A stretch of DNA of 64,000 bases from Eledone cirrhosa (lineage: Eukaryota): NCBI GenBank assembly GCA_964016885.1, contig OZ024741.1:189286001-189350000 (forward strand), in the 5' to 3' direction. A program made the translations under genes and the position numbers. The notes below the pieces were generated by a model that was given only the letters and a program-made list of their open reading frames with translations, searched no databases and was not told where the DNA came from. The stretch's first letter is position 1; each line of letters opens with the position of its first letter. This document shows positions 10,415 to 56,717 of the stretch, piece by piece.

Positions 10415-12100
10415 GTCAGTCTTAAACACAGCACCTCTCTTTTACTGTTGATATCAATCATTAAGACAGTCACTATGTCGATGTGACTTCTTCACCCTGA
10501 TCATGAGATATTCCAGAACAACTAGAAGTGCAAATTAATGCTTTATTCCTCATACAACTTCAATCTGTAATCTCAAAACCTTTCACTGATTTACCTGTGA
10601 TTCTGTTGCTGTAGAATGCACATGATGCCACAAACAATACCTGGAAGATATCAACCACCACAAACTGGGAGACTTTCATCCATTAGTCTGATACTTATAA
10701 AATTACCCTAAAAATGTAAAGGATACCTCTGTATACAAAATACCCTACAAGTTCTCCCATCTCGCAAATACTGAGTGCTCACGTAGTCAGAAATGACGAG
10801 GAAAAGTAGTTTCAATTGACTAGAGTTTAGTATGTTACTTTTGCTCATTTTATTGCTGCTGAAATGATAAAAGGCAAAGTTGACCTCAGTGGGATTTGAA
10901 ATCAAAACATAAAGAGTCAAAACTAAATACTGCTCAGTATTGTAGTTCACTAGGAGACCAAGGATTAAGTTTAAAAGTTGAAGAAAATAAATTCAGTTAA
11001 TCCAGTCTAGACTATTTCAGAACAAATTTTGCTTCATGAGGACAGCAACTGAAACAGTCAAGGTGGGTATTTAAGCAGTGTTTCCCTGAAGCCAGTTATG
11101 AGAGTATATTCTGCTTCTCCAAGTTACGCAGCTGGTAAAATTTCATCCCATTGACATAGAGGTGGGGTGGATTTTTCTCTATCCTCCATTTAATGGAGAA
11201 CCCTGTGCCATTATGTTTGAGGTTCCACATATGGTTCATGAGTTGAGTGGTATGTTATTTTGTCAGAATGTCTGAAGGTTGTTTCATGGTTCAGGAAATG
11301 GCTTTTGAACTTGCTCTCAGACATTCCTACATAAGTTCAGACTTTAGTTTGGTGGTTCTTGTTGGTGAAGATCACTTCTGCTTCATATATAACTGCTAGC
11401 GTGTTGATCCAGGGGCATGTCTCTGGCCTTCTGCTTGAGCATCTGTAAGGTGCAAGGCTTTTACGTTTGTTGGTGATATAGGATTTTATGTTATTAGTAG
11501 AAGAGTAGTCTGTTGTTACTGTATGGCAGTTGAATATTTGTCAGTACTACAGGGAAGTGAAAATCTAGGAGGGCTAGGAATTTTCTACCTACATTAGTCT
11601 TCACACTAAGTGCGAATGGTGGCGCAAACCACAAGACAACTTTATGTCTAAATTTTTTTCTTACTAGATATAGGGTGGTGATCTGGAGAGTAAGTGATTC
11701 TCTCGGAAAAGCCGCTGTTGCTTAGGGCTGAGTTGTAGTAGGGGGCTGCCTTGTCAAATAGCTTTTGCTAGAAGAGAGGTTGGATATACTCTAACTAATG
11801 TTATTAAGGAGATTTTTAAAAGCTATAAGTTAGTCTTTATGAATGTACCTAATTTTTTTACTGGGTTTGTGGAATGGTCTGTATGTGTACACACACACAC
11901 ATGCACACTAACTTTCGCTCACAAAGTATTATACAACCTGGGGCTACAATAGAAGACACTTGCCCAAGATATTGTATTATGGGATTGAATCGGGAAGCAT
12001 GTATTGTTTATTTTTATATTTATTTGTTTTTGTTTGTTTCTTCTTTTTTTATATCTTTGTCTTTTGTGTAGTTTGATAATTTCCCTTGTGTTTTTTACAG

Positions 12101-12548: not shown

Positions 12549-15500
12549 CATCATCATCACCGTTTTACGTCCGTTCTTCCACGCTAGCATGGGTTAGACG
12601 GGTTGTCCTGTTGTGGGCAGTGTCTGGTCGGCTGACCATGCCTTGCTCATACAGGAACTGATCTGGCTTGATTTCTACAGCTGGATGCCCTTCCTAACAC
12701 CAACCTCATTTACAGTGAGTGCTGGGTGCTTTTTCGTGGCGCCTACACGTCCACTTTACAGTGTGGGCTGGGTGCTTTTTTGCCGTGGCACCTCCACGAC
12801 CACCTTGCGGTGGGGGGAGTGGGGGCATATTGTTTATATGCTTCAGCATGTACCCATGGGAGGTCGGGTACCCTGTATTACTGCGTGACGCCAGAAGTCA
12901 CGGTCGTGTGTCATTGACTTTGAGAGGTGTAGTTGGGTAAGGTCGGCTTTTATCACCTCATCCCAAGTCATCTTGGGTCTCCGCACTCCGCGGTTTCCAT
13001 CAACTTCTAGTGCTCTGCACCTTTTTATGCAGCTGTCATCCTTCATACGCATCACATGTCCATACCAGCGTAACCGCCTCTCCTGCACGCAGCATTTGAT
13101 TCCTCTTATGCTCAGTCTCTCTCTCAATTCCTTTATGCTTTGTCGTTCACGTATATTACTGTTACACATCCATCGGAGCATGCAGGCTTCGTTTCTCTCT
13201 AATCTACGTAAGTCTTCCACCTTCAGCGCCCAGGTCTCACTACCATGCAACATCGCTGTTCGGATACACGCATCATACAGTCTGCCTTTCATTCTGAGGG
13301 AGAAGCCTTTTGCAGCTAGCAGTGGTAGTAGTTCCCTAAACTTCTTCCATCCCGTTCTTACCCTAGTTATTGTACTTTCTGAGCACCCACCTCCGTTGCT
13401 AATTCGGTCACCTAGGTAGCAGAAGCTGTCTACTGTTTCTACAGGGCCCTCCCAGAGATTGGTGGTACTTGTTTCCTGTGGCTGTTTGCTTGCTGTTTCA
13501 GCACAGCTGCTGCATGTGAATCCTACATTCTTAATTAAGCTTCCTGAGATCCCGCTACATCTCTTGTGTACCCATTGTTTGCATTTGGGGCAGAGAATGG
13601 AGTTCCTACCTACACCTTTCCTACATACTGAGCAAGGCCATTTCCCTGAGGGGATCTGGGTTCTGTTTTCTCGTCTACTTATAAGGACCTTAGTCTTTGT
13701 CATGTTGACTTTGAGGCCCTTTCTCTCTAGTCCCTGCTTCCAGGTTTGGAATTTATTCTCTAGTTCTACCATAGATTCAGCTATGAGTGCGAGGTCATCA
13801 GCATACAGGAGTTCCCATGGGCATCCGGTCTTAAACTCCTCCGTTATTGCCTGCAGGACTATGATGAACAGGAGAGGGCTAAGAACAGAGCCCTGGTGGA
13901 CCCCAACCTGTACGCTAAATTCCTCGCTATACTCATTGCCAATCCTAACTTTGCTGACTGCTCCCCTATACATGGCTTGTACCGCTTTCACAAGCCATTC
14001 ATCTACTCCTAGTTTTCTAAGAGCCCACCAGATTACTGCACGTGGAACTCTGTCAAAGGCTTTCTCAAGGTCGACAAATGCCAAGTAGAGTGGCTTACTT
14101 TTAGCTAGGTACTTTTCCTGTAATTGCCTCACAAGGAAGAGGGCATCAGTGGTGCCTTTCCCTGGTACAAACCCAAATTGCATCTCGTCTATATTCACCC
14201 GGTCCCTAATCAGCTGTGCTATAACTCTTTCTGTTACTTTCATGACCTGGTCCATCAACTTTATACCTCTATAGTTTCCTCTATCTAGTGCATCGCCTTT
14301 ACCTTTGTAGCAGTTGACAATGATGCTACTGCACCAATCTTTTGGTATGGCCCCCTCTAGTATTACCTGGTTAACGATACGTGTGGTTATAGTGTGACCT
14401 ACAGACCCAGATGCCTTCAGCATCTCGGCAGCTATACCCGATGGACCGGTTGCCTTCCCTATCTTCATATCTCTGATTGCCTTACTTACTACACTGCCGC
14501 TGACTTGTACTGCTGGTCCCTCTATAGGGTCTACGTGGGGTAGGGTCTCTTCTTCCCATGCATTCTCCTCATTTAGTAATCTATCATAATGACTCTTCCA
14601 TGCATCTTTCTTCTCAGCACTTGTGAGGGCAAGCTCACCTTTATCATTCCGGATACACTTCTCTCCAATGACATCACAACTATCTCTGACACACTGCCTC
14701 GCAATCTTGAATACCTCCTGTTTCTGGTCCTCACGTTGTAAAACATGCTTGAATTTTCTATCCTCTGCTTCCCTCCTAGCTAAGTATACTTGTCGCCTAG
14801 CTTCCCTCTTGGTCTCTATGTAATGTACCCTGCTCCCCCCGTTCTTCCATTCTTTCCATGCCTGTCTCTTGGCCTTGACTGCTTCATCTACCTTATTGTT
14901 CCACCACCAAGTCACTCTCCTCCTGCTTGAGGTCTTACTCCAGCCACAAACCTCATCCGTCGCCTCTAGTAAGTTATTTTTTAGGAACTCCCAGTTCTCT
15001 TCTACGTTAAATATCTCTATCTGTTCTTCTTTACTGTCGTAGGCGTTGAGTAAAATATCTTTAAATCTGTTACTGGTTGAGGGGACTTTCAGCTTCCAGA
15101 TCTTTCTTCTCCAGGTTGGCCTCTGTTTCAGGGCTCGTCTAGTTCTGACCGTGAGGTCGCTGACAACTAAGCTATGTTGGGATGTACATTCCTCACTAGG
15201 GAAGGCTTTTGTGTTTACGACCGTCCATCTGTCACGTCCTCTGATGAGGATAAAATCTAACTGACTAGAGTGCTCCCCTGATCTATAGGTGATCAGGTGG
15301 TTGTCGGGTTTTTTAAAGTTTGTGTTACATATCGACATGTCATTGGCGTCGCAGAATTCTAGAAGTCTGAATCCTTCCTCATTCCTTGTGCCAACTCCAT
15401 GGCCTCCATGTACTCTATTGAAGCCGTCGCAGTGTTTACCTACGTGTCCGTTAAAATCTCCTGCAATGATTAGGAAGTCCTTGTCGTCTGTTAGAGCAGT

Positions 15501-15579
15501 AGTGTGTATTAGGGACTCGTAAAACCTATCCTTAAGTTCGTCTGGCAGCCCCGATTGGGGTGCGTAAGCTGATATTATT
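12549..15579 (-). mobile_element. RTE LINE family A, 5'-truncated, open APE-RT frame
   Basis: ORF 12843-15338 stays open upstream to IISAYAPQ; IAGDFNGH, LYADD; (GAT)n tail; candidate TSD gtgtaat at 12542-48 and 15580-86. Confidence 0.95.
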
Positions 15580-15772
15580 GTGTAATATGAAATATAAACA
15601 CCTTTATAGGATGTGATTAGAAATCTAGTCTACTCTTATGTCTCATGAGAATCACTGGCAATTTAGCAGCTACTTAACCACCTGCAGATACAGGATTATG
15701 TTAGGTACTTTACTTGCTAAACTGTAGTTGCTAAACTGTCTTTGATTCTCATGGGACATGAGAGCAGCTTAA

Positions 15773-29639: not shown

Positions 29640-30674
29640 ATACTTTGGGAGGGTCATGTTGCCAATAAGAAACACACGCACCAGTTGCTTTCACTTCAAT
29701 TTATTATAATAAATTTATGAATTTATAAATTTCTGGTTGGTTGGCTGGTTCCACAACCAGATAGTTGTTTATATATTGTCATAGTTCTTTCGTCACACAC
29801 TCTGTGACCTCTTCAGTGACTGGGGATTCTTTTCTTTGTTTTTGTGCCTCTCCTTTGTTCTGTCCTACGCCATTTTGTTTCTGTTTGTGTCACACACAGA
29901 AAATACCTCGCCAAATTTACAATCTTCATCGGAGCAAGGTTTGGTCAACTCTCTGGCCAGATTTGACTCCCAACATGGACGACCCATCTAACCCATGCAA
30001 GCATGGGAAAATGGACACTAAATCATGATGATGATGATGATGATGATGATGATATATATATATACAAATACATATAACAATATGACTTAACCTATCTCCC
30101 ACCATTGTTCCTTAGTAATTATTCTCATAATCACTAAACCCTTTTCTATCTATGAACACCTCCCCTCCCTCCTAACAACCTTTCTTTTCTCACATCACCC
30201 AAAACCTTTGATATCATACTTGTTATTTCTCCCTCCCACTAACCTATTGTCCCTTACCCATGATATAGTTATTATCTCTTTTGCCTCATCCAGCAGTAGA
30301 ATCCATGCCAAAAAGGATTGAGAGGACTCTTCTGTCAAGGGCACAACAACTTCTCTAGTGTTGATGACACAATCAAATGCATCTGATACTCTATATACAG
30401 TGCAAAATGCTGGCTCTTGGTCCATCTGTGGGTTCACCTGCCTCAATTAAGACCTAACTTGGTTTATGATATGATGACCCATCTGACCCTTGCTATCAGG
30501 GAAAATGGACATTAAATGATGATGATGATGATATATGTGTTTATATATATATATATAGGGAGAGAGAGAAAATGTGAAGTTGGAAATAGCATGGAAAATA
30601 TATTTTAGGGTCTGTTTTTTTTTTGTTTTTTTTTTGTATTTTTCCTTCCTTTGATTCGTCAAAGTGACATTATT

Positions 30675-33620: not shown

Positions 33621-36600
33621 TCAACGTTTAACGTCCGTGTTCCACGCTTGCATGGGTTTGGACGGGGGTAGTCCCACTTGAGGCAAGAGTGATTGTCTTG
33701 CTCGCATAGGACTGTCTGGCAGGTTTTCTACAGTTGGATGCCCTTCCTAACACCAACCACATTTACAGTGTGGGTCTGGGAGGTTTTTACCGTGTTGCCT
33801 ACACGGCCACATTACAGCGTGGACTGTGTGTTTTTTTGTCGTGACACCTACACGATCTCATTTGATTCGGCCTGGATGGCGCGGCACCAACATAACTTTA
33901 CATAGAACGGGGTGGTGTGGATGGGGTGGGGGTTGTGGTGGTGGGACGGGGTGTATTTTGTTAGAGATGCCTAGTGGCAAGGCGGGTCTTCTCTATTACT
34001 GAGTACCGCCAAAGGTCTCGGTCCAGTGACATTGTCTTGGTGAGGTGTAAGTGTGTGAGGTCGGTGTTTATCAGCTCGTCCCAGGTTTTTCTGGGTCTGC
34101 CTATTCCGTGGCTACCATCTATCTTTATTGCCCTGCACTTTGTTATACAGCTATCATCCTTCATGCGCATCACGTGACCATACCAACGTAGCCTTCTCCC
34201 TAGTAAACAACATCTGATCCCTCTTATTTCTAATTTTTTCCTTAGTTCGTTTATGCTTTGTCGTTCACGTATATTACTATTACACATCCAGCGGAGCATG
34301 CAAGCTTCGTTTCTCTCTAGTCTGCGTATATCCTCTGCACACAATACCCAGGTCTCACTGCCATGCAACATTGCTGTTCGTATGCAGGCATCGTACAGCC
34401 TGCCTTTCATTTTTAGGGAGAACCCTTTAGCGGCTAATAGTGGTATAAGCTCTCTGAACTTTTTCCACCCAGTTCTGACTCTAGCTACTGTACTTTCAGG
34501 GCACCCTCCCCCACTGCTGATTTTGTCACCCAGGTAACGGAAGCTGTCCACTATTTCTATAGAACCATCTGGGCAATAGAAGGAGCTAGTATTTTGTGGG
34601 CACTTGCTGCTACTTATATCCACAGAACACCAGCCACATGTAAAATCTATGTTCTTAGTTAGCTTACCTGTGATCCCACTACATCTTTTATGCACCCAAA
34701 CTTTGCATTTGGGACACAAAATGGAATTTCTGCCTACGCCTTTCCTACACTCTGCGCATGGCCACTTCCCGGAGGGGACCGCCGCCTTATTTTCTTTCTT
34801 ACAAACTAGAACTTTAGTCTTAGCTAGGTTAATTTTAAGGCCTTTTGATTCTAGGCCGTGCTTCCATGTTTGGAATTTCTTCTCTAGCTCGGCCATTGAT
34901 TCAGCTATGAGCGTTAGATCATCTGCGTATAGGAGTTCCCATGGGCAGCCGGTCTTGAACTCCACTGTTATAGCCTGGAGGGCAATAATAAATAGTAGGG
35001 GGCTAAGAACAGAGCCCTGATGAACACCAACTTTTACACTAAACTCTTCACTATATTCGTTGTTAATTCTAACCTTGCTAACTGTTTCTTTATACATGGC
35101 TTGTATAGCTCTCACAAGCCATTCATCAACACCTAGTTTTCTAAGAGCCCACCAGATAATGGAACGGGGGACTCTGTCGAAGGCCTTCTCCAAGTCGACG
35201 AAAGCTAAGTATAGGGGTTTACTTTTAGCTAGGTACTTCTGTAGTTGTCGTACAATGAAAAGAGCGTCTGTGGTACTTTTTTCTGACACAAACCCGAACT
35301 GCATTTCATCTAGATCAATTCGCTTTCTGATTAGTTGCGCTATAACTTTTTCCGTGACCTTCATGACCTGGTCGATTAATTTAATGCCTCTATAGTTACT
35401 CCTATCTAGGGCGTCTCCTTTACCCTTATAACAGTTAACGATAATGCTGCTGCGCCAGTCCTTCGGAACAACCCCATTCTGTATGACTTGGTTGACTATC
35501 CGGGTGACCATGGTGTGTCCCACCGTACCAGATGCCTTCAGCATCTCGGCAACTATTTCCGAAGGCCCAGCCGCCTTGCCTGTCTTCATATCTTTGATTG
35601 CCTTACTTATTATACTACCCTCGACTAACACTGCTGGTCCCTCTATTGGGTCGATGTGGGGGAGACTGTCTTTCTCCCATTTATTCTCCTCATTTAGTAG
35701 CCTTTCATAGTGACACTTCCAAGCTACCTTCTTATCGGCGTCGGTGATGGCAAGTATGCCGTCATCGTTAAGTACACACTTCTCCCCGACAATATCACTG
35801 TTTTCCTTGACACATTGCCTAGCAATCCTGAACACCTCACGTTTTTGGTCATCGCGTTGTAGAACATGCTTGAACTTTCTTTCCTCTGCTTCCCTTCTTG
35901 CAAAGTACACTTGTTTCCTAGCTTCCCTCCTGGCCACTTGATAGTCTTCTCTGCTTCCCCCATCCCGCCATGCTTTCCAAGCCTGCTTTTTGGCCTTAAT
36001 TGACCCCTCCACCTTACTGTTCCACCACCATGTTACTCTCCTCCTGCCTACAGGCCTGCTCCAGCCACAGACTTCGTCTGCCGCCGTCAGCAGGTAATTC
36101 CCACTGTTCCTCTACCTTGTACGTCTCTAATTGCTCTTTCTCACTGTCGAAAGCATCAAGTAATATGCTTTGGAATTTATTTTTGGCTGTGGGGTCCTTT
36201 AGCTTCCATATTTTTCTCCTGAGGATAGTCCTCTTCTGTTGTCTAGTACGTCTCGTCCTGACTATTAGGTCGCTAATTATCAGTCTATGTTGGGAAGTGC
36301 ATTCTTCATGGGGGAGGGATTTAGTGTTTACGACAGTCACTTTGTCACGTCTTCTGGTAAGGATATAATCTACCTGGCTAGTATGTTCCCCTGATCTGTA
36401 GGTGATCAAGTGATTGTCTCGTTTTTTGAAGTTAGTGTTGCAGATAGTTAGGTTATTTGCGTCGCAGAATTCCAGGATTCTCGAGCCTTCCTCATTTCTA
36501 GTACCAAACCCATAGCCTCCATGGATTTCGTCGTAGCCGTCACAATGTTGTCCAACGTGACCGTTTAGGTCGCCTGCAATAATTATATAGTCACTGTCGG
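33621..36600 (-). mobile_element. RTE family B, ~3 kb, 5'-truncated, frameshifted near 36010-36100
   Basis: IIAGDLNGH endonuclease motif and 683-aa RT ORF. Confidence 0.95.
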
Positions 36601-37298: not shown

Positions 37299-37334
37299 TC
37301 TTAACGTTTCGGACGCTAGTCCTTCATCAGAAGA
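37299..37334 (-). ncRNA. Minimal hammerhead ribozyme motif (Penelope pLTR type)
   Basis: On -: tctt-CTGATGA-a-ggac-tagc-gtcc-GAAA-cg-TT-aaga. Confidence 0.75.
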
Positions 37335-43241: not shown

Positions 43242-43314
43242 GTAAGTTTCAAATGTCTGCAGCATTTTCTTATTTATTAAATAGATGTTAAATAGTGGTG
43301 ATAATGATAACAGT

Positions 43315-45783
43315 GGTGGTGATGGTAGTGGTGGCCATGCTGGTGATGGTAGTGGTGGCCATGCTGGTGGTGATGGTAGTGGTGGCCATGCTGGTGGTGA
43401 TGGTAGTGGTGGCCATGCTGGTGATGGTAGTGGTGGCCATGCTGGTGATGGTAGTGGTGGCCATGCTGCTGGTGATGGTAGTGGTGGCCATGTTGGTGGT
43501 GGTAGAGGTGGCCATGCTGGTGGTGGTAGTGGTGGCCATGCTGGTGGTGGTAGTGGTGGCCATGCTGGTGATGGTAGTGGTGGCCATGCTGGTGATGGTA
43601 GTGGTGGCCATGCTGGTGGTGATGGTAGTGGTGGCCATGTTGGTGGTGGTAGAGGTGGCCATGCTGGTGGTGGTAGTGGTGGCCATGCTGGTGGTGGTAG
43701 TGGTGGCCATGCTGGTGATGGTAGTGGTGGCCATGCTGGTGGTGGTAGTGGTGGCCATGCTGGTGGTGGTAGTGGTGGCCATGCTGGTGGTGATGGTAGT
43801 GGTGGCCATGCTGGTGGTGATGGTAGTGGTGGCCATGCTGGTGGTGGTGGTAGTGGTGGCCATGCTGGTGGTGGTGGTAGTGGTGGCCATGCTGGTGGTG
43901 GTGGTAGTGGTGGCCATGCTGGTGATGGTAGTGGTGGCCATGCTGGTGATGGTAGTGGTGGCCATGCTGGTGGTGGTAGTGGTGGCCATGCTGGTGATGG
44001 TAGTGGTGGCCATGCTGGTGGTGGTAGTGGTGGCCATGCTGGTGGTGGTAGTGGTGGCCATGCTGGTGATGGTAGTGGTGGCCATGCTGGTGATGGTAGT
44101 GGTGGCCATGCTGGTGGTGATGGTAGTGGTGGCCATGCTGGTGGTGGTAGTGGTGGCCATGCTGGTGGTGGTAGTGGTGGCCATGCTGGTGGTGATGGTA
44201 GTGGTGGCCATGCTGGTGGTGATGGTAGTGGTGGCCATGCTGGTGGTGGTGGTAGTGGTGGCCATGCTGGTGGTGGTGGTAGTGGTGGCCATGCTGGTGG
44301 TGGTGGTAGTGGTGGCCATGCTGGTGATGGTAGTGGTGGCCATGCTGGTGATGGTAGTGGTGGCCATGCTGGTGGTGATGGTAGTGGTGGCCATGCTGGT
44401 GGTGATGGTAGTGGTGGCCATGCTGCTGGTGATGGTAGTGGTGGCCATGCTGGTGGTGGTAGTGGTGGCCATGCTGGTGGTGGTAGTGGTGGTCATGCTG
44501 GTGATGGTAGTGGTGGCCATGCTGGTGGTGGTGGTAGTGGTGGCCATGCTGGTGGTGATGGTAGTGGTGGCCATGCTGGTGGTGATGGTAGTGGTGGCCA
44601 TGCTGCTGGTGATGGTAGTGGTGGCCATGCTGGTGGTGGTAGTGGTGGCCATGCTGGTGGTGGTAGTGGTGGTCATGCTGGTGATGGTAGTGGTGGCCAT
44701 GCTGGTGGTGATGGTAGTGGTGGCCATGCTGGTGGTGGTAGTGGTGGCCATGCTGGTGGTGGTAGTGGTGGCCATGCTGGTGGTGATGGTAGTGGTGGCC
44801 ATGCTGGTGATGGTAGTGGTGGCCATGCTGGTGGTGATGGTAGTGGTGGCCATGCTGGTGGTGGTAGTGGTGGCCATGCTGGTGGTGATGGTAGTGGTGG
44901 CCATGCTGGTGATGGTAGTGGTGGCCATGCTGGTGGTGATGGTAGTGGTGGCCATGCTGGTGGTGGTAGTGGTGGTCATGCTGGTGATGGTAGTGGTGGC
45001 CATGCTGGTGATGGTAGTGGTGGCCATGCTGGTGGTGGTAGTGGTGGTCATGCTGGTGATGGTAGTGGTGGCCATGCTGGTGGTGATGGTAGTGGTGGCC
45101 ATGCTGGTGGTGGTAGTGGTGGCCATGCTGGTGGTGATGGTAGTGGTGGCCATGCTGGTGATGGTAGTGGTGGCCATGCTGGTGATGGTAGTGGTGGCCA
45201 TGCTGGTGATGGTAGTGGTGGCCATGCTGGTGGTGATGGTAGTGGTGGCCATGCTGGTGGTGGTAGTGGTGGCCATGCTGGTGGTGGTGGTAGTGGTGGC
45301 CATGCTGGTGATGGTAGTGGTGGCCATGCTGGTGATGGTAGTGGTGGCCATGCTGGTGGTGATGGTAGTGGTGGCCATGCTGGTGATGGTAGTGGTGGCC
45401 ATGCTGGTGATGGTAGTGGTGGCCATGCTGGTGATGGTAGTGGTGGCCATGTTGGTGATGGTAGTGGTGGCCATGCTGGTGGTGGTAGTGGTGGCCATGC
45501 TGGTGATGGTAGTGGTGGCCATGCTGGTGATGGTAGTGGTGGCCATGCTGGTGATGGTAGTGGTGGCCATGCTGGTGGTGATGGTAGTGGTGGCCATGCT
45601 GGTGGTGATGGTAGTGGTGGCCATGCTGGTGATGGTAGTGGTGGCCATGCTGGTGATGGTAGTAGTGGTGGCCATGCTGGTGATGGTAGTGGTGGTCATG
45701 CTGGTGGTGATGGTAGTGGTGGCCATGCTGGTGATGGTAGTGGTGGCCATGGTGGTGGTGGTAGTGGTGGCCATGCTGGTGGT
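43315..45783. repeat. Intronic minisatellite, ~100 units of 24/27 bp (catgctggt[ggt]gatggtagtggtggc)
   Basis: Seen directly; unit lengths vary only in whole triplets. Confidence 0.97.
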
Positions 45784-46210
45784 GAAAATGACAGCCACAG
45801 CCGCTACCATACTGCTCTTCGCCACCACTGCAACTGTTGTGGTGTAGAGGGGTATGTTATGGTGGAGGTGGATATGTTATGGTGGAACAATGTATGTCAG
45901 TCTCCAGTAGGCAGACAATGATGTTATGAACAAAAGTCAGCTGGGAGTTTCTGTCAAAGTCGATTACATATTTCACAGAAGGATAAAATGAATGAATAAA
46001 TGCATGAATGAATGAATGATGAGAATAGAATTAAGAATGTATGGATGGTGTCTTTGTTATTTTTTTATAGTTCAGTTTAGTTTAGATTTTAGTTGTTGTT
46101 GTTGTTGTTGTAATACAGTTACAAATATTGATGTGAAAGTGAGTGCATAGTGTGTCATCATTTGTAAATGATATATATATATATGTATATATGTATATAT
46201 GTATATATAT

Positions 46211-46557
46211 GGAGGCACATGGCTTAGTGGTTAGAGCATTGGCCTTGCAATCGAAAGGTTGTGAGTTCAATTCTCAGACCGGGTGATGTGTTGTTTCCTT
46301 GAGCAAGACACTTTATTTCACATTGCTCCAGTTTACTCAGCTGTAGAAATGAGATGATAGGGACTGGGGTCTCTATCATTCCACTGCAAAGTGGTCGTGG
46401 AGGTGCCACGGCAAAAAAGCACCCAGCACTCACTGTAAATGAGGTTGGTGTTAGGAAGGGCATCCAGCTGTAGAAATCAAGCCAGAATCAGTTCCCGTCC
46501 CACCCTTGCAAGCAGGGAAAAGCGGACGTAAAATGAAATGATGATGATGATGATGAT
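46211..46557 (+). mobile_element. Full-length SINE family 1
   Basis: tRNA-like head tggcttagtgg / gagttcaattc, central domain, RTE family C tail, (GAT)n. Confidence 0.92.
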
Positions 46558-46635
46558 GTGTGTGTGTGTGAATGAAGTAATTCCGTCGGAAAGGTACAGG
46601 AAAAAAGAGTGCTCTATGTAGGTTACAGACCTTAT

Positions 46636-46863
46636 TAGTTATGTAATAAACAACATAAGATAATTATTTCATTTACCAGTGGTTTCTTGAAAGCAAATAT
46701 ATCTGTTTTCAGTCTTCAGAATGAATAAAACATGGTGTTTTTATTAAATATGGATTTTCAAATCAAACACCATGTTTTATTCATTCTGACGACTGAAAAC
46801 AGATATATCTGCTTTCAAGAAACCACTGGTAAATGAAATAATTATCTTATGTTGTTTATTACA

Positions 46864-46869
<6 letters not shown>
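46636..46869. repeat. Inverted repeat, 105-bp arms, 24-nt spacer, abutting (TA)n
   Basis: 46636-46740 vs 46765-46869. Confidence 0.95.
46780..46837 (+). ncRNA. Type I hammerhead ribozyme motif (mirror copy on - strand in the left arm)
   Basis: ttcatt-CTGACGA-c-tgaaa..tttca-a-GAAA-ccactgg-TA-aatgaa; the left-arm copy has CTGAAGA. Confidence 0.85.
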
Positions 46870-46928
<59 letters not shown>

Positions 46929-47392
46929 GACCTCAACTAAAGTGAGTTACATTCCTTTTTAAACTTCACTCCACCATCTACATTCCACTATCAATATAAC
47001 AATTCCTTTTTCTTCATAGGTTCTTTATAGTAATTCTATTTTTAACACCATTTAACTATTACTTTCAAAGGGTCATGACCTCAACTAAAGTGAGTTATAT
47101 TTCATGTTAACATCATATGGCAAAAAACCATTTGATTGGTTTGTTCTTCAGCTACCTCCGCATAAGGTCATAGAACTCAATTTACTATTGATTTTGAATA
47201 AAATTTTCATTGCTTTTGACAACAGCTGATGACATACATGTAGGTAAATATATTCCTTATTTGATATTTTGTAACTAACCCTACATAGATTGATAACGAA
47301 ATATGTGTACAATGTATTATTATCACCTAGAAACGGTCGTAAAGCAGTGAAATATATTTCTAATGACTTCAATTTTTATTTCATTGTTTCAA

Positions 47393-47458
<66 letters not shown>

Positions 47459-47487
47459 TATTATTTATGTATATAAATATATATATA

Positions 47488-47842
47488 CAGTGTACCCCTG
47501 GCATTTACGGTCCCAACGTTTGCGGTCCCAGTTTTCCTTAGAACCTAACTAATAATTGTATGTGAAAACCACCACATATTCACAGATATTCCGCAGATAA
47601 CTTCCGCGATTTTTTAATGTTGTTTTTTTGTGGCAATATATATTATTTAACACTAAATTTATAGTAACAATATACCATATTTGCCAGCCCATTGGATACC
47701 CCTTCGCATAGACGCTCCTTCTTTATTTTATTATATTTTTACATTTATAGACATTTTTATGGACCATGTCCAATATTCGCAGTTTTTCTCTCTTCCTGGT
47801 TGCTCTAGGAATGTAATCCCCATGAATACCTGGGAACAACTG
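47488..47842. mobile_element. Tigger/pogo-like MITE, degenerate
   Basis: TA|cagtgtacccctggcattt ... gaatacctgggaacaactg|TA imperfect TIRs. Confidence 0.55.
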
Positions 47843-47856
47843 TATAAATATATATA

Positions 47857-48220
47857 TCATCATCATTTTACGTCCGCTTTTCCCTGCTTGCAAGGGTGGG
47901 ACGGGAACTGATTCTGGCTTGATTTCTACAGCTGGATGGCCTTCCTAAAACCAACCTCATTTACAGTGAGTGCTGAGCGCTTTTTTCTTTCCGTGGCGCC
48001 TACACGACCACTTTACAGTGTGGGCTGGGTGCTTTTTTGCTGTGGCACCTCCACGACCACCTTGCAGTCCCTATCATCTCATTTCTACAGCTGAGTAAAC
48101 TGGAGCAATGTGAAATAAAGTGTCTTGCTCAAGGAAACAACACATTACCCGGTCTGAGAATTGAGCTCACAACCTTTCGATTGCAAGACCAATGCTCTAA
48201 CCACTAAGCCATGTGCCTCC
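47857..48220 (-). mobile_element. Full-length SINE family 1
   Basis: Homologous to 46211, with an extra ~40-bp subrepeat. Confidence 0.92.
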
Positions 48221-48750
48221 AATATTTATTTGGTTCTTTTACCGGTTTTGCAGTTCTCCTGCTTTTCAAAAGTAGAGTTGAGATGGAGGGTCTGTGGTTT
48301 TTCTCACATCTGGTTGGTCTCTAAATGTTTTATATGGAAAAAGTGGCTTGAAATGCCAGGTTTTTAGAGAAGTAATTTGATTGGTTGGTCAATAATTATA
48401 ATAAATTTTGCGCCAGTTCACGTTACAAAGTTCTTCAAACAAGGGGGGGGGGGGGGTCACAGGTTGTTTTTTCATATATGAGTGTTTGAATTTCTTTTTA
48501 CTTAAAAAAGAGGGGGCTCACGAAGGCTTTTTTTTAATAAACGTAATTTTATTGGTTATTAATGAAATTATGGCTGTCACGTGAACAAGTTTTCATTAAA
48601 TTTCCGCGCCCTTATTTGGAAATCCATTCTGTAGCCTTTTTAGAGAATTTTATGATAAGTAAAAGATAATGGTCAAGAGAAATGGGATGGGAGAATTGTT
48701 CTGGTTCATTGAATATGGTTAGTTCGCTGGGGTGTCAGAATTCAGATTAC

Positions 48751-48911
48751 CGGAGGTGGTAAGAGCAGACCTCAGATCACTGAAACTCGCCGAGGAGATG
48801 ATGAAGCACCGTGACAAGAGGAGAGTTGCCGTGCTGAATAGGGCCCATCCAACCCTTGCAAGCAGGGAAAAGCAGACGTAAAATGATGTCAACGATGATG
48901 ATGATGATGAT
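48751..48911 (+). mobile_element. RTE family C short 3' fragment
   Basis: EVVRADLRSLKL.. plus tail. Confidence 0.8.
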
Positions 48912-49566
48912 ATATGTGTGTATGTGAGATTGAGTGAGAGAAAAATGTGTGTTTTGTACACTCATGCATACAACCACATATGCATGTATATATGATATGT
49001 GTATGATAAAGATATATATATATTTTTACTAATTTCAGCAAGTACTATGTCCAGTACACTCTCTACTAAAATGATTGGTGTTAGTAAAGGCTTTTAGCCA
49101 TAGAAATTTAATTTAAAGCCAATTTAATTTTGGATATATATATGGCCCCTTGATTGTAGAGCTAATTCAGTTGAATGAACTCAGCTGCCATTTCTAGCTG
49201 TCGATAATCCTATTCAAGCCACTGGGATGACATGGTGCGGTGTCTGTAGTTTTTATAAAATGCAACACGTGGTTCGAGTCATTTACAGATTTGTATTTGA
49301 TGTGTAAACACAGATGGTTGGATCTTCTCTTTTGGTGACCATCCAGGATTTGTCTGCTGTGATTTACTGGTTAATTGGTGAAATATATTTTTTATTTAAA
49401 GAAATATATACAAAGGAGATTAATCATTTTAAAAGGTATCTATATTTGAAGTTATAGTTTAATTAGTTACCTACCTAGCTATGTGTGTTTACACACTTTA
49501 CAAATTATTCCCTGAGATTGTTTCATGTGTTTATTTTATATATATATGTGTATATATATATATATA

Positions 49567-50164
49567 TCATCATCATCATCATCATCATCAACGTTTAACG
49601 TCCGTGTTCCACGCTTGCATGGGTTTGGACGGGGGTAGTCCCACTTGAGGCAAGAGTGATTGTCTTGCTCGCATAGGACTGTCTGACAGGTTTTCTACAG
49701 TTGGATGCCCTTCCTAACACCAACCACATTTACAGTGTGGGTCTGGGAGGTTTTTACCGTGTTGCCTACACGGCCACATTACAGCGTGGACTGTGTGTTT
49801 TTTTTGTTGTGACACCTACACGATCTCATTTGTTTCGGCCTGGATGGCGCGGCACCAACATAACTTTACATAGAACGGGGTGGTGTGGATGGGGTGGGGG
49901 TGGTCGTGGTGGGACGGGGGTGTATTTTGTTAGAGATGCCTACTGGCTGGAGTAGGTTTTACTATATATTTAGGTAAGGCGGGTCTTCTCTGTTACTGAG
50001 TACCGCCAAAGGTCTCGGTCCAGTGACATTGTCTTGGAGAGGTGTAAGTGTGTGATGTCGGAGTTTATCAGCTCGTCCCAGGTTTTTCTAGGTCTGCCTA
50101 TTCCGTGACTACCGTCTATCTTTATTGCCCTGCACTTTGTTATACAGCTATCGACTTTCATGCG

Positions 50165-50168
<4 letters not shown>
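49567..50168 (-). mobile_element. RTE family B 3' fragment
   Basis: Near-identical to 50332-50927; (TA)n on both sides. Confidence 0.93.
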
Positions 50169-50204
<36 letters not shown>

Positions 50205-50331
50205 CTTTGTTCTTTTTCACTAATATTTCTACTCTGCTTATACGCATAGAGCTTAACTAGCTACCATCACATATTTGGTAGGTCAGACGTGATCATCGCG
50301 ATTCACATACGACCTACCATATATCTTGCTT

Positions 50332-52082
50332 ATCATCATCATCATCATCAACGTTTAACGTCCGTGTTCCACGCTTGCATGGGTTTGGACGGGGGTAGTC
50401 CCACTTGAGGCAAGAGTGATTGTCTTGCTCGCATAGGACTGTCTGGCAGGTTTTCTACAGTTGGATGCCCTTCCTAACACCAACCACATTTACAGTGTGG
50501 GTCTGGGAGGTTTTTACCGTGTTGCCTACACGGCCACATTACAGCGTGGACTGTGTGTTTTTTTGTCGTGACACCTACACGATCTCATTTGTTTCGGCCT
50601 CGATGGCGCGGCACCAACATAACTTTACATAGAACGGGGTGGTGTGGTTCGGGTGGGGGTGGGGGTGGTGGGACGGGGTGTATTTTGTTAGAGATGCCTA
50701 CTGGCTGGAGTAGGTTTTACTATATATTTAGGTAAGGCGGGTCTTCTCTGTTACTGAGTACCGCCAAAGGTCTCGGTCCAGTGACATTGTCTTGGAGAGG
50801 TGTAAGTGTGTGATGTCGGAGTTTATCAGCTCGTCCCAGGTTTTTCTAGGTCTGCCTATTCCGTGACTACCGTCTATCTTTATTGCCCTGCACTTTGTTA
50901 TACAGCTATCGACTTTCATGCGCATCACGTGTCCATACCAACGTAGCCTTCTCTCGAGTAAACAACATCTGATCCCTCTTATCTCTAATTTATTCCTTAG
51001 TTCGTTTATGCTTTGCCGTTCACGTATATTACTGTTACACATCCAGCGGAGCATGCAAGCTTCGTTCCTCTCTAGTCTGCGTATATCCTCTGCACACAAT
51101 GCCCAGGTCTCACTGCCATGCAGCATTGCTGTTCGTATGCAGGCATCGTACAACCTGCCTTTCATTTTTAGTGAGAACCCTTTAGCAGCTAATAGTGGTA
51201 TAAGCTCTCTGAACTTTTTCCAACCAGTTCTGACTCTAGCTACAGTACTTTCAGAGCACCCTCCCCCACTGCTGATTTTATCGCCCAGGTAACGGAAGCT
51301 GTCCACTATTTCTATAGAACCCTCTGCGCAATTGAAAGAGCTAGTAGTTTGTGGGCACTTGCTGCTACTTATTGCACCAGAGCACCGGCCACATGTAAAA
51401 TCTATGTTCTTAGTTAGCTTACCTGTGATCCCACTACATCTTTTATGCACCCATACTTTGCATTTAGGACATAAAATGGAGTTTCTACCTACGCCTTTCC
51501 TACACACCGAGCACGACCATTTCCCAGAAGGGACCGCCGCCTTGTTTTCTTTCCTACAAACTAGTACTTTGGTCTTAGCCAGGTTAATTTTAAGTCCTTT
51601 TGACTCTAGGCCGTGCTTCCATGTTTGGAATTTCTTCTCTAGCTCGGCCATTGATTCCGCTATGAGTGTCAGGTCGTCTGCGTATAGGAGTTCCCATGGG
51701 CAGCCTGTCTTGAACTCCTCTGTTATAGCCTGAAGGGCAATAATAAATAGTAGTGGACTGAGAACAGAGCCCTGATGGACGCCGACTTTTACGCTAAACT
51801 CTTCACTATATTCGTTGTTAATTCTAACCTTGCTGACTGTTTCTTTATACATGGCTTGTATAGCCCTCACAAGCCATTCGTCAACGCCTAGTTTTCTAAG
51901 AGCCCACCAGATAATGGAGCGGGGGACTCTGTCGAAGGCTTTCTCCAAGTCGACAAAAGCTAAGTAGAGGGGTTTACCTTTAGCTAGGTACTTCTCCTGT
52001 AGTTGTCGTACTATGAAAAGAGCGTCTGTGGTACTTTTGCCTGACACAAACCCGAACTGCATTTCATCTAGGTCAATTCTCT

Positions 52083-52085
<3 letters not shown>
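50332..52085 (-). mobile_element. RTE family B, 5'-truncated, open RT frame
   Basis: 444-aa ORF MQFGF..LYADD..TEKTRLT*. Confidence 0.95.
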
Positions 52086-52146
<61 letters not shown>

Positions 52147-52221
52147 GGAGGAAATATGGTAAGGAACCAGGTGGACCATAATGCACCAAAGTACTCAATA
52201 CTTAGGGTAGTAGAGTGGGTA

Positions 52222-52346
52222 ATAGGAACGAGTAGGACCCCGACGGCTGAGCTCAAGCCGTTTCGACGGCTAATTCTGGACTAAAAGTCAGTCCAGAATT
52301 AGCCGTCGAAATGGCTTGAGCTCAGCCGTCGGGTCCTACTCGTTCC

Positions 52347-52349
<3 letters not shown>
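52222..52349. repeat. GC-rich inverted repeat (~60-bp arms, 7-nt loop) between (TA)n tracts, carrying the 3' half of a hammerhead
   Basis: 52222-52282 vs 52290-52349; GAAA-(c/t)ggc..gccg-TC. Confidence 0.9.
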
Positions 52350-52445
<96 letters not shown>

Positions 52446-52448
52446 ATG

Positions 52449-52483
<35 letters not shown>

Positions 52484-53299
52484 TGCAAGAATCCAACAAA
52501 TGAATAATAATGTTCTTGTAATATTCGTAATGACAGACTTAAAAAGAATTAGTTGTCCAAAATGATGGAATCCAGCTGGGGTTCTTTGATAAACATTGCA
52601 TATTATTGGGAGAATATTTATTGATGCAACTTGGGGTTGGATAACAAATCAAAAAATAATCACGCATGAGGAATTTTTTTATCATTGTCATTTTCCCATA
52701 TTTCATGAGTTTTAGACATTAAATGATGCTTTTAATGAGACTCCATTACAATATTGGTACATGGAAAAAGAAGAAACAAACAAAGTGTGTTTCATAATCT
52801 TTTCGAATATTATTTCAGCTGAAGTAAAAAGGAAAGCATTGTATTTAAATAAATACTGTTTTTGCATAAAAATGGTATTTGTTATGATGTCCATAGCCCA
52901 GTTGTGGCTATGTGGTTAAGAATATCACTTTAGATCCTTAAGCTTGCATAGTTTCTACTGTAATATTTGTATCATCATCATCAACATCATCATTTAATGT
53001 CCATTTTCCTTGCAAGCAAGCATTGATCTGGTTATCACAAACCAACTCAATACTTAATCAGAGGTACTGATCTCTTAGACAACCCAAGGGCTACATCTTG
53101 CTTACCTATCTTCTTGCACTCAACTAAAAGAACTTGCGACACTTTGTTTGGCAAGTTTTCTATGGCCTTTCATATTACCAATCCCTTCACAGTATGTGCT
53201 GAATGTATTTTATTATGTCATCAACACAAGAGAGGTTGTTATGCTATTGACACAACTGAAAAGATCTCTCAACCATTTGTTTGGCAAATTTTCATTGGC

Positions 53300-56073
53300 T
53301 GATGAAATTATTGTGTACAGTGCTCAGGTGCACTACAACTCATCAAAGGTACATGTATAATACATAGAATAATGTACAAATGTCAGGAAAGTGAACAGTG
53401 TATGAGTTATGATATACATGTGTGTGTGTGTATGGAGGGGGATATCAGGTATAGTGTTAGTGAATTTCAGGAAGCATGGAGGTTTTAAAGGATGAAGTGT
53501 TCCGACAGCTAACAACTGATGCAGGTAGTTTGTTCCATGCTTCAGCAACTCTGAGCGTGAAAAAATGTTTCCGAAAGTCATGGGAGCTGTACAATTTTCT
53601 GACTTTGTAGGCATGCCCACGTCTGTTAGACACATGGAATTCAAAAAGGTGCTCAGGGTTGTTGTTGGCAAGATGGTTAATAATTTTGTGGATGTTTACC
53701 AAGTCAGTTGCCAGATGTCAAAGATTCAATGTATCCATGCCCAGAGAAGCAAGGGTTTCTGAGTATGGTAGATGCCTGATGGAGGGTATTCGCTTGGTTG
53801 CACGTCTCTGAACAGTTTCAAGGAGGTCAATGTTCTGAGCAAGATAGGGGTTCCAGACTGGTAATGCAAATTCTAAGTGTGGCCACACCATAGCTATATA
53901 CAGCTTTAAATAGACAGCTGGAGAGTGGTTGACAAAGGTCTTGCTGGGTGATGCTAAGAGACCCTCGGCCTTCTTGACAATTTTAAAGACATGCTTTGTC
54001 CAACGCAAATCGCTGCTGACAAATCGCTGCCCAGGTTATATTCACAAGAAGACTTTTTGATATTAGTGTTGTGGAGGGAGTATGTGGGTTTTTCCTCCCA
54101 AAATGTATGGTGGTACACTTGTCCACAACCAACTTGAGTTGCCAGTCCATAATCCATTGTTGCATGGTGTCCAGGTCTGATTGCAGGAAAGATCTATAGT
54201 GTTCAGAATCTGTCCTTTTTATCTCAAGGTACAGCTTAATGTCATCTGCATATTTCAGTACTGTGGCATTCTTTAAGTTGGCATCTATGTCATTAGTATA
54301 TGCAACAAACAAAAGGGACCAAGAACAGATCTCTGTGGTACACCAGATGACATAATCATACAGTGAAGAATGCTGTCCTAGAACCATGACTATCTCTTTT
54401 CGACTGAGAATGAAGGACTTCAACCAGTTAAAAAGATCATCCTTCACACCCATTGCAGAGTGTTGTGCCATAAGTCTTTTATGTGGCACAGAATTAAAAG
54501 CTTTAGTAAAGTCAAGGTAAACATCTACCCATGAGCCGTCATCAGTGATCCGGCTGATGTCTTCAAGAAACTCGATAAATTGATCACAGCAGCTGGAGTT
54601 GGGGATAAATCAAAATTGCGAGGGCCAGATAAGACTGTGAGAATTCCAGAAGTTCCAAATGTCTCTGTGACACAGGATTTCATCAGTTTGGTAATGCAGC
54701 TGGTAATACTGACTGGATGATAGTTGACTAACAATATGCAGTCACCCTTTTTGAACAGAGGAACGACACTGGCACTGCTCCGGAGTAGCACCGTTGTTAA
54801 GATAGAATTGAAAGAAGAGTGATAGCTGGTGCAGAAGGAAGTACCCACCATGTTTGAGGAGCAGGTACGTAACACCATCAAGACCAGGAGAGGCATGGTT
54901 GCGTTTATTCATAAGGTGACGTTGCAGCATTGCAGGTGTAAATTCCATAGTTGTTATAGAATTTGATGTCAAAGGTGGTGGAGATGGTACATTTTGGTTT
55001 TCAACAGTAAAAATGCCTGCATAGCATTCAGCAATGAGTTCTGCGCATTCTTTGGGGTCGTCAGTAATCTGACTTGTGTTGGGATTGCAAAGAGGACCTA
55101 CTAGAGAGTGAGGTCTCTGCTTTGAATGTACATATTTCCAGAACACCTTACTGTCAGGGTTCGTTGCTATGAGCTGTTCAAATTCAAGCACTGCCATTTT
55201 TGTCACCTGCTTGAGCTGGTTGGATGATTTATTTCACTTTTTTCTATCGATATCTGATTTATGCAGTTTGTATTCACGTTCAGCATTACAACATTCTTTC
55301 CTGGCAAGACGGACTGCTGCAGTCTCCCAAATTACATTTTTGGGATGTTTTTTTGTGCTTACATGGCACTGATGCTGCACATGCTGTCCATATTGAGTTC
55401 AGGATGTTCTAAGTATAGTGTTTGCATCTCCAGAGTCGTAAAATTCAAGCCAGTTTGGGCGTTGCAGCTCGGTGCAGTAACAGTTCCAGTCTGCTTTATT
55501 CCAGTCAAAGTTAGCAGTTTGGAGATGGTTGTGGTTTTTGTTACTGCCCATAAGAGACAGATTGGCAATGATCATACCGTGATCAGGGTCACCTAAAGGT
55601 TCCTCAATAGTAACACTAATAACTGATTCAGAAGTAGTGGTTAAGAGTAGATCCAAAGTGTTATCACCTCTTGTTGGGGAGGTGACTACTTGGGACTAGT
55701 CCAAGTCTAGCACTAGCTCAAGGAAATTATTTGCACTTTGCGGCCAACGAAAAGTTTCCCAATCAATCTCAGGGTGATCGAAGTCACCTGCAATAAAAAC
55801 GTAACTGGCAGCAGCTCTGAGGATATCACAAAGCTGAGTGTCCTGATGGTAGTTTGGAGGAAGGGGGGGTGTGGTAAACAACTCCAGGTAGAAGTGTTGA
55901 CATGGTCATACGTATATCGCAAAAAAATACTTCTTGTTGTGATTGGTTCAAATCAACGCAAGGTATTGCTGAAAAGTTTGAACGAATGTAGACCGTTACA
56001 CCACCACGACAATTAATGCAGTCTTTGCGAGACAAGTTGTAGCCAGCTATGCTGAAAACCCCATCCCAAACCA
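53300..56073 (-). mobile_element. Decayed CR1-group LINE (APE plus RT)
   Basis: YNLSRKDC..RGGVTVYI, IAGDFDHPEIDW, NYHPVSITS, YADDIKLY, FFTLRVAEAWNKLP; many frameshifts. Confidence 0.9.
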
Positions 56074-56405
56074 CTTTAGAGAATGTTCTGGGTGCATTAT
56101 ATTATATATATGTAGAGTTGCTCTACGGTTTTATATATTTTTATATATATATTATCCATATCGAGCCCTCTTCGGATTTTAGTCTTCACATTTATTATTA
56201 TTACTATATATATATATATATATGTATATATAAGGGATAACAAAATATTGTTATAGGTAATTCAGTTAGAGGTTGTGAATATTTAAAATTGAGTGGCACA
56301 GCTTCAAGTGTTCAGCAATTTTTAGACAACTTAATCAGTGAAACAATTGTTAAAACTGTAAATAAAACCCGTTTTTGTACTGTTGACCATGTTATTCTTC
56401 ACTCT

Positions 56406-56461
<56 letters not shown>

Positions 56462-56500
56462 ATATATATATGTGTATATATATATATGTATGTATGTATG

Positions 56501-56531
<31 letters not shown>

Positions 56532-56717
56532 ATTTGTATATATATATATATATATATAATTGTTGGTGTGTGTTCTTATATTGTTTTACTATTTTTGGTC
56601 ATTGGACATTGGTCATGCTGGGGCAATGCTCTCTAGAGTATAATCAATTACTTAGACCTCAGTATGTTTAATGACTCTTTCTGCCTGACTGACTCAAATT
56701 GTCTCCCATCTTTTCAG

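Follow-up and report, generated by a model that had tools for sequence, protein, structure and literature searches.

Head-to-head 5'-truncated ends of a probable Hydra-clade Penelope-like element in a dynein intron of Eledone cirrhosa, with a hairpin predicted to mask both of their hammerhead ribozymes

From the evidence assembled for the window (the whole 64,000-nt stretch of DNA analysed here), two short repeat copies lying head to head are understood as the 5'-truncated ends of a Hydra-clade Penelope-like element (PLE), left behind by one insertion into a microsatellite and joined into a hairpin that is predicted to mask the two hammerhead ribozymes carried by the copies. We put the probability of this reading at roughly 0.85. 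The features on which it is built are the following.

43242..56717, + strand: host intron (13.5 kb) of a DNAH12-like axonemal dynein heavy chain gene, with GT at 43242, AG at 56716-56717 and flanking exons in frame; an extra small exon may lie inside these bounds
46559..46570, + strand: (TG)n run closing a SINE-like repeat, left flank and likely target (from the sequence and repeat pairs)
46571..46757, - strand: left copy, a 5'-truncated element end of 187 nt including the tail (family-read coverage from 46571 to 46757)
46571..46635, - strand: 65-nt tail of the left copy, missing from the right copy (the arms cease to match at 46636/46869)
46611..46631, - strand: putative tail hairpin with a 2-nt bulge (from comparison)
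46668..46725, - strand: type I hammerhead motif of the left copy, with CUGAAGA and a G.U at the equivalent of 46802/46809
46755..46757, no strand: inversion junction, a 3-nt overlap of the 5' ends of the copies (by-eye comparison)
46755..46869, + strand: right copy, a 5'-truncated element end without tail, in dynein sense orientation (from arm comparison and family reads)
46780..46837, + strand: the right copy's type I hammerhead motif, with cleavage predicted after 46831 and stem III at 46822-46830
46868..46928, + strand: (TA)n run, right flank and likely target (from the sequence)

The exons on either side of the site, read on the + strand, match Pfam Dynein_heavy and AAA_lid_11, and the top PDB match of the gene is DNAH12, which bears out the dynein intron proposed in an earlier note on this DNA. 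The arms of the inverted repeat (46636-46751 and 46754-46869) are 116 bp each and 94% complementary, with mismatches at 7 of the 116 positions. Two of these fall inside the outer 105 (46765-46869), where the arms are 98% alike, and they are located at 46790 (N7 of the ribozyme core) and 46809 (stem II). The hairpin is itself bracketed by SINE-like inverted copies (46210-46536 and 47863-48221), which are 97-98% complementary over 157 and 124 nt, lie 1.3-1.7 kb apart and could give this intron another, longer stretch of double-stranded RNA. About 45 nt past the dynein donor site at 43242 there begins a 2.5-kb GT-rich array of 9-15 nt units with several frames open (43285-45790), and just right of the (TA)n flank there is a 36-nt direct repeat (46927-46962 and 47075-47110; 89% alike, spacing 148 nt). 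The dynein introns are filled by long reverse-transcriptase ORFs at 12843-15629, 33961-36111 and 50728-52083 (- strand), which we take to be of the non-LTR type and one of which runs for 928 codons without a stop, together with many truncated relatives.

In both arms the hammerhead core is complete (C3 U4 G5 A6 N7 G8 A9, G12 A13 A14 A15.1, U16.1 and H17) and is framed by three helices with stem I as the open end, these being a 6-bp stem I, a 9-bp stem II with one mismatch and a stem III of 3-4 bp. In the right arm, six Watson-Crick pairs between 46780-46785 and 46832-46837 make up stem I, the core is read as CUGACGA (46786-46792) and GAAA (46819-46822), stem II (46794-46817) consists of 5 bp, an A.C mismatch at 46799.46812, 4 bp and a 4-nt loop, and cca-c-tgg (46823-46829) is followed by GUA. 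The anatomy described earlier (6-bp stem I, CTGACGA in one arm and CTGAAGA in the other, GAAA, cca-c-tgg and GTA) is thereby confirmed, each element in its place. A loose type I descriptor matches twice in the 64-kb window, at the two arms and nowhere else, compared to a chance level of 0.067 matches per simulated 64-kb window (60 simulations); because the arms are copies of each other, the two matches count as one event. Both motifs are real and exceed what chance would give.

The closing pair of stem II at 10.1/11.1 is C46793.A46818 in both arms, not G-C. A G10.1-C11.1 pair aids the activity of hammerheads, and the cost of the C.A mismatch rests on that. The pair is highly conserved in hammerheads, though not universal (PMC4209133), and the passages of PMC2837043 and PMC544870 that were consulted give no rate for a C.A closing pair. 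The Rfam hammerhead models return no match at gathering score in the whole window, and they are absent from the 30 matches up to E=10 in 46400-47100. Of the description as two canonical cores back to back, the presence of both cores therefore stands while the word canonical goes too far, in view of the C.A at 10.1/11.1 and the Rfam hammerhead models without match. As regards a tertiary contact between loop I and loop II, no obvious extension of stem I is apparent by eye. A microRNA precursor was considered for the hairpin and rejected, as the hairpin-driven Rfam matches all lie under gathering score (best 80.2 compared to 245 bits).

The two copies belong to a dispersed multicopy family that is present in all four of the runs examined. 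These four (X1, X5, X8 and X15, the last of them RAD-seq), from 17 listed public runs, were aligned to the 298 bases of 46571-46868. The matching pieces number 2830 contigs in X1, 24 in X5 and 5 in X8 and 4547 reads in X15, totals that give no copy number, since contig depths are summed and X15 is RAD-seq. The family has a first 3' end at 46572-46575 (20 and 15 X1 contigs, 304 X15 reads) and a second at 46636 (22 X1 contigs, 256 X15 reads), and both lead into TA- or TG-rich repeats, with (TA)n following 46636. The left copy carries the 65-nt tail because its end is of the 46572-46575 type, and the right copy stops exactly at the second 3' end of the family.

Selection keeps the ribozyme in this family, in that the core is conserved and stem II varies while mostly retaining its pairs. 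Among the listed variants (36 of the 40 listed rows, from 78 in all, the four at 46730-46759 being left out because they lie beyond the motif), variation affects 1 of 19 positions in core and stem III compared to 12 of 25 in stem II, loop II and N7 (Fisher p=0.0025). Covariation among copies, set beforehand as one of the points on which the ribozyme reading could fail, was thus found at the level of the family, with pairs kept or restored in stem II. The variants 46798 A>G (114 of 155 X15 reads, 0.57 of X1 depth) and 46813 T>C (197 of 276 X15 reads, 0.62 of X1 depth) jointly convert A-U into G-C, and 46813 T>C singly breaks a pair; because the variants are unphased, it is their matching frequencies that point to compensation. 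The A.C mismatch of the present copy is mended by either 46799 A>G or 46812 C>T, and at 46799 most of the family is free of it (0.92 of X1 depth, 218 of 426 X15 reads). Similarly, the wobble of the left arm is mended by 46802 G>A or 46809 T>C, while 46816 C>T yields a wobble. The only varying position of core and stem III is G8, replaced by A at 1% of X1 depth and, in X15, in 107 of 423 reads from 2 starts, and of the stem I variants one is a wobble and one, at 46783, is pair-breaking (35 of 141 X15 reads, 1% of X1 depth). With G8 changed and stem I broken at 46783 in part of the reads, some family copies are decayed. Judged by its letters, the present locus is a slightly damaged version of the family ribozyme. 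There is also a large subfamily with another stem II (929 X15 reads, loose end behind 46697), which by eye is fully paired and has U-A at 10.1/11.1 and G at N7.

The family is most likely a Hydra-clade PLE represented by 5'-truncated copies, as suggested from sequence comparison with Hydra-1_Obim, Hydra-1/2_Ajap, Hydra-2_Amil, Hydra-1_Crog, Penelope-13_HM and Penelope-17_HM (Craig et al. 2021, PMC8557442). By eye, the locus and the Hydra-clade PLEs have in common a type I hammerhead that lies close to the 3' end and whose palindromic stem III places 4 pairs round a single nucleotide. In most Hydra rows of File S2, stem III has three pairs and A15.1-U16.1 round a 1-nt loop, and the acca-c-tggt found here compares with acca-a-tggt in Hydra-1_oBim (PMC8557442). 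By eye, they further share the frequent absence of G10.1-C11.1, the (TA)n targets, a tail confined to one end, an inverted, 5'-truncated copy that gives each strand a ribozyme, and a hairpin placed 31-39 nt after stem I. According to the same source (PMC8557442), U.U replaces G10.1-C11.1 in many Hydra rows of File S2, (TA)n is the target of nearly all Hydra-clade elements, the inverted 5'-truncated copy of Penelope-13_HM comes with a ribozyme listed for each strand, and PLEs may have an optional tail as well as an inverted 5'-truncated copy, the tail being one-sided. There are differences, in that stem II spans 26 nt between the core halves here compared to 7-17 nt in the core descriptor of PMC8557442, the tail has 65 nt rather than the 30-40 bp described there for PLEs, and position 10.1/11.1 is C.A or U-A in this family, unlike in the Hydra-clade rows.

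In Hydra-clade PLEs the terminal repeat is preceded by an ORF with RT motifs RWK and DKT, a CxCX5C linker and GIY-YIG at the C-terminus. No reverse transcriptase ORF linked to the family was found at the locus or in scans of metagenome and viral contigs. An exact 19-letter scan of the metagenome contigs gave six loci, all six of them chance matches without an upstream core, and the viral contigs contained no match to an 18-letter pattern and no confirmed relative of the Hydra-like ORF remnant of the window. Hydra-1_Obim was rejected as the parent, since exact 9-12-letter probes had no match at the right place and the ends differ by eye; the Naiad families were rejected because no probe matched at a matching place.

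Other traces of PLE character are scattered over the window. A broken ORF remnant at ~11100-11900 (- strand) resembles by eye the thumb, linker and GIY-YIG parts of Hydra-clade PLE proteins; it has no DNA likeness to the inverted-repeat family, and no hammerhead was found after it. A broken PLE-like ORF at ~5750-7190 (- strand) gives a weak RVT_1 match (E 0.0014, below cut-off) and has, by eye, a cysteine-rich linker and a GIY-YIG-like end. A minimal hammerhead of classic PLE type stands alone between microsatellites at 37330 (- strand); it has an extra base, G10.1-C11.1, a 2-nt palindromic stem III and a 4-bp stem I, and its sequence is unrelated to the inverted repeat. A hammerhead-like motif at 29816 (- strand) has a 6-bp stem II and a 4-bp stem I, and its stem III palindrome is not clear.

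Regarding the way in which the pair was made, both copies are 5'-truncated because family sequence continues upstream of 46757 and is absent at this locus. The junction was called by eye, comparing the window at 46740-46770 with the loose-end consensus behind 46757 (8 X1 contigs, agreement 0.86), and the same inspection shows that, just inside the junction, 12 nt of the left copy are missing from the right copy. No contig or read among X1, X5, X8 and X15 spans the locus's own junction, and even the public run richest in words of the locus contains just 0.42 of them. The lack of a spanning read would fit a palindrome that arose as an assembly or library fold-back artefact, which we nonetheless find barely credible: a fold-back would give identical arms, whereas these differ at 2 of 105 positions, both of them family-variable, and they show a 12-nt gap at the junction together with two different native ends.

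At least 13 other joints leading from left arm to right arm were noted (7 in X1, 6 in X15), with scattered breakpoints, short sides (20-35 letters where given) and low depth, such that library fold-back chimeras may be included; judged by eye, 9 of them have no complete motif left, 4 have a single one and none has two. This suggests that fold-back insertion is routine for the family and that the presence of two whole ribozymes here is an accident of where copying stopped. The joints 46729/46776 and 46731/46777 were discarded as new junctions, since the mapping switches between mirror positions instead. A miniature inverted-repeat transposon was rejected because the ends are unequal (one-sided tail) and the breakpoints differ among copies.

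Most likely, the inverted arrangement goes back to reverse transcription that was primed twice, once on each strand of the (TG)n/(TA)n target. A first cDNA, primed from the (TG)n run, would start at the tail end 46571 and give the + strand to 46757; a second, primed from the (TA)n run, would start at the no-tail end 46869 and give the - strand to 46755. Both would stop 32-37 nt beyond the ribozyme and join through the 3-nt overlap. Two-strand priming is one of several ways to make such an inversion, and a target-site duplication is unreadable inside microsatellites. By analogy, the two 3' ends with their TA-rich repeats match the PLE tail and inverted copy of PMC8557442 and the two initiation sites of PMC11167929. 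Because they share rare letters, the arms derive from the same source subfamily.

The main alternative to two-strand priming is snap-back copying of one cDNA. Along with a template switch in host repair, it would have one insertion made palindromic later, the second arm being copied from the first, which alters how the pair arose and not what the pair is. The rare letters common to both arms (e.g., 46799, 46805 and 46807), their 98% likeness over 105 nt and the tiny mirror overlap at the junction are all compatible with such a conversion. We nevertheless consider it rather unlikely, as the first letters of the right copy lie, by eye, upstream of the end of the left copy and so could not be templated by it, the right copy ends exactly at a native 3' end of the family, and both arm differences (46790, 46809) occur at family-variable sites.

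Quite improbable, in our assessment, is a non-autonomous element of retrozyme-like or SINE-like kind that has a PLE terminal repeat and is moved in trans, the locus then being an inverted pair of its units. Coverage depth falls off sharply on the 5' side of stem II, and no attached ORF was found, as would be expected of such an element, and animal retrozymes are reported to be derived from PLE terminal repeats (bioRxiv 10.64898/2026.07.22.740005). Non-coding repeats and type I hammerheads related to PLE terminal repeats are indeed shared with animal non-LTR retrozymes (PMC7229834; bioRxiv 10.64898/2026.07.22.740005). However, retrozymes are defined by head-to-tail arrays, whereas the copies at this locus are inverted and truncated; none of the 13 joints in one listing, 8 of which are among the left-arm-to-right-arm joints above, goes back on the same strand (query 46571-46868, with family sequence up to 46757); the fall in depth is largely explained by the subfamily with the other stem II; and family reads extend upstream of 46757.

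Taken in isolation, each arm has the hammerhead shape as its best ViennaRNA structure (-8.6 and -6.0 kcal/mol), and single arms fold no better than shuffles (z -1.29 to +0.40, 6 folds). The best monomer fold uses a 3-bp stem III with a 3-nt loop at a pair probability of 0.64, the fourth pair being unable to close a 1-nt loop. The proposal that stem III is too tight for a monomer is thus right for the fourth pair and not for stem III as a whole, which is predicted in the 3-bp form. In the model, a strand-swapped dimer of the right arm through the stem III palindrome reaches -26.2 compared to -17.2 kcal/mol for two monomers, and the lowest two-strand fold (-30.0) swaps stem II, palindromic too, rather than stem III. 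The dimer is favoured by these calculations, and a monomer stem III could also form. That hammerheads with a short palindromic stem III function as dimers, as the earlier note had stated, is reported (PMC4209133, PMC6765202) and agrees with the advantage of 9 kcal/mol for the model dimer.

Metazoan PLE terminal repeats contain minimal hammerheads whose dimers cleave weakly, and some of these occur as dual motifs, one per strand, at a spacing of ~100-700 bp (Cervera and de la Pena 2014, PMC4209133). The present motifs resemble those of PMC4209133 in the long stem II, the short palindromic stem III, the dimer model, the dispersed truncated copies and the opposite-strand duals. They are distinct from the consensus of that study, which has an extra base before the highly conserved G10.1-C11.1 and a stem III of 0-2 bp; moreover, the cores here are just ~60 nt apart in a near-perfect hairpin, in contrast to the wider spacing of the published duals. 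In the RNA of the parent element, the hammerhead would cut after GUA weakly, either as a stem III dimer or helped by the element's protein, to judge from related families.

The situation predicted for the locus itself is different from that of the isolated arms. The whole inverted-repeat stretch folds as one hairpin (-172 kcal/mol, z -24.8), which leaves the hammerhead helices of either strand with probabilities of <=2e-18; in each of 6 growing prefixes, the left arm has already captured the core by pairing (P >=0.997). With the copies joined at their 5' ends, transcription of either strand would yield the antisense arm first. Masking by the antisense arm, as had been anticipated, is thus obtained as a prediction of the fold model with a probability near 1. 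The 116-bp hairpin is predicted to keep both ribozymes from folding, and since the antisense arm would be made first on either strand, the ribozymes at this locus are likely silent. No second same-strand copy of the repeat family to dimerise with is found in the 64-kb window, nor is a further copy of the tail motif, the sole 2-mismatch match being at chance level.

A switch kept by the host, in which the sense ribozyme cuts the dynein pre-mRNA unless the antisense arm masks it and in which editing or unwinding of the hairpin releases it, might be suggested from the sense orientation of the right copy with its 13 core letters and 6-bp stem I, from its stem II being one wobble better than that of the left copy, and from the hammerhead shape of the isolated arm. 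We regard such a switch as very improbable: the antisense arm, made first, is predicted to pair with the core as the core emerges; both arms have the C.A closing pair and the A.C mismatch, the latter missing from most of the family; two cores are kept in none of the 13 listed other fold-back joints; a same-strand family partner is missing from the window; and for ribozymes of the parent type cleavage is poor (PMC4209133) or dependent on protein (PMC11167929). A potentially active intronic ribozyme special to this locus consequently finds no support, as the motif belongs to what is most likely a high-copy Penelope-like terminal repeat, opposite-strand ribozyme pairs are published, either strand would give the antisense arm first and the window offers no same-strand partner. 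Two intact cores lie in a hairpin that is predicted to mask them, and the masking looks like a by-product, because the other fold-back joints scatter and none of them keeps two intact cores.

The tail of the left copy holds the putative bulged hairpin, of which a private change at 46630 breaks one pair in this copy. In the family, the pairing letter at 46630 is found in 1517 of 1556 X15 reads and at ~100% of X1 depth, and the other two listed tail-hairpin substitutions sit at the loop. The tail hairpin of this copy alone folds no better than shuffles (z -0.17), and ViennaRNA prefers another register. By eye, a similar bulged hairpin is present in 4 of 6 Hydra consensus sequences (Hydra-2_Amil, Hydra-1_Ajap, Hydra-2_Ajap and Hydra-1_Crog; File S7, PMC8557442), with a 14-letter exact match of the tail hairpin to Hydra-1_Ajap and another to Hydra-2_Ajap, while Hydra-1_Amil ends short of the hairpin point and Hydra-1_Obim has no clear match. 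The hairpin begins 36 nt past stem I at this locus; for the three Hydra consensus sequences with a 3'-end hairpin, the corresponding distances are 31, 36 and 39 nt. The words stem-loop and hairpin are absent from the main text of PMC8557442, and among the titles and abstract beginnings covered by a literature search there was no paper dealing with a Hydra-clade tail hairpin. The outer tail (46571-46620) is common to 346 X15 reads and one X8 contig with different sequence behind 46620, and the reads diverging there suggest that a second family uses a related tail hairpin.

A mechanistic analogy is offered by PAc, a Poseidon element of Anolis, whose protein, a dimer by prediction, cuts and extends both DNA strands (Frangieh et al. 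2024, PMC11167929). Its reverse transcription starts at two sites flanking the tail, a stem-loop is found at the start region, the targets are AT-rich and the ribozyme is dispensable for in vitro insertion (PMC11167929). We liken to the present locus the two start sites round the tail, the start-region stem-loop, the extension on both strands and the AT-rich targets. PAc differs in belonging to another clade and in having a ribozyme that overlaps with the start of the ORF and needs protein to cut (PMC11167929), and the biochemistry described was shown for PAc. We tentatively suggest, as a possibility that we hold to be worth stating rather than probable, that a dimeric Penelope-like enzyme simultaneously copied two RNAs into both strands of one microsatellite break, with the cDNAs starting from either side of the tail and meeting at the 3-nt overlap, and that the bulged tail hairpin, shared across Hydra-clade elements, is the signal bound by the enzyme to set the two start sites. 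If true, this would explain in one step the inverted pairs with a one-sided tail.

Lastly, the value of the locus is modest and is seen in the mechanism of insertion rather than in ribozyme catalysis. The hammerheads of PLE terminal repeats, their dimer requirement, the opposite-strand pairs and the inverted copies are already in print, so that as a ribozyme find the locus is ordinary, and insertion probably left it as a usual by-product. PMC8557442 names as an open question the way in which PLEs come to insert in inverted form with the tail on one side. A short, recent-looking pair with a readable junction, together with a tail hairpin that by eye is shared with four Hydra-clade families, provides a concrete and testable model of inverted PLE insertion.
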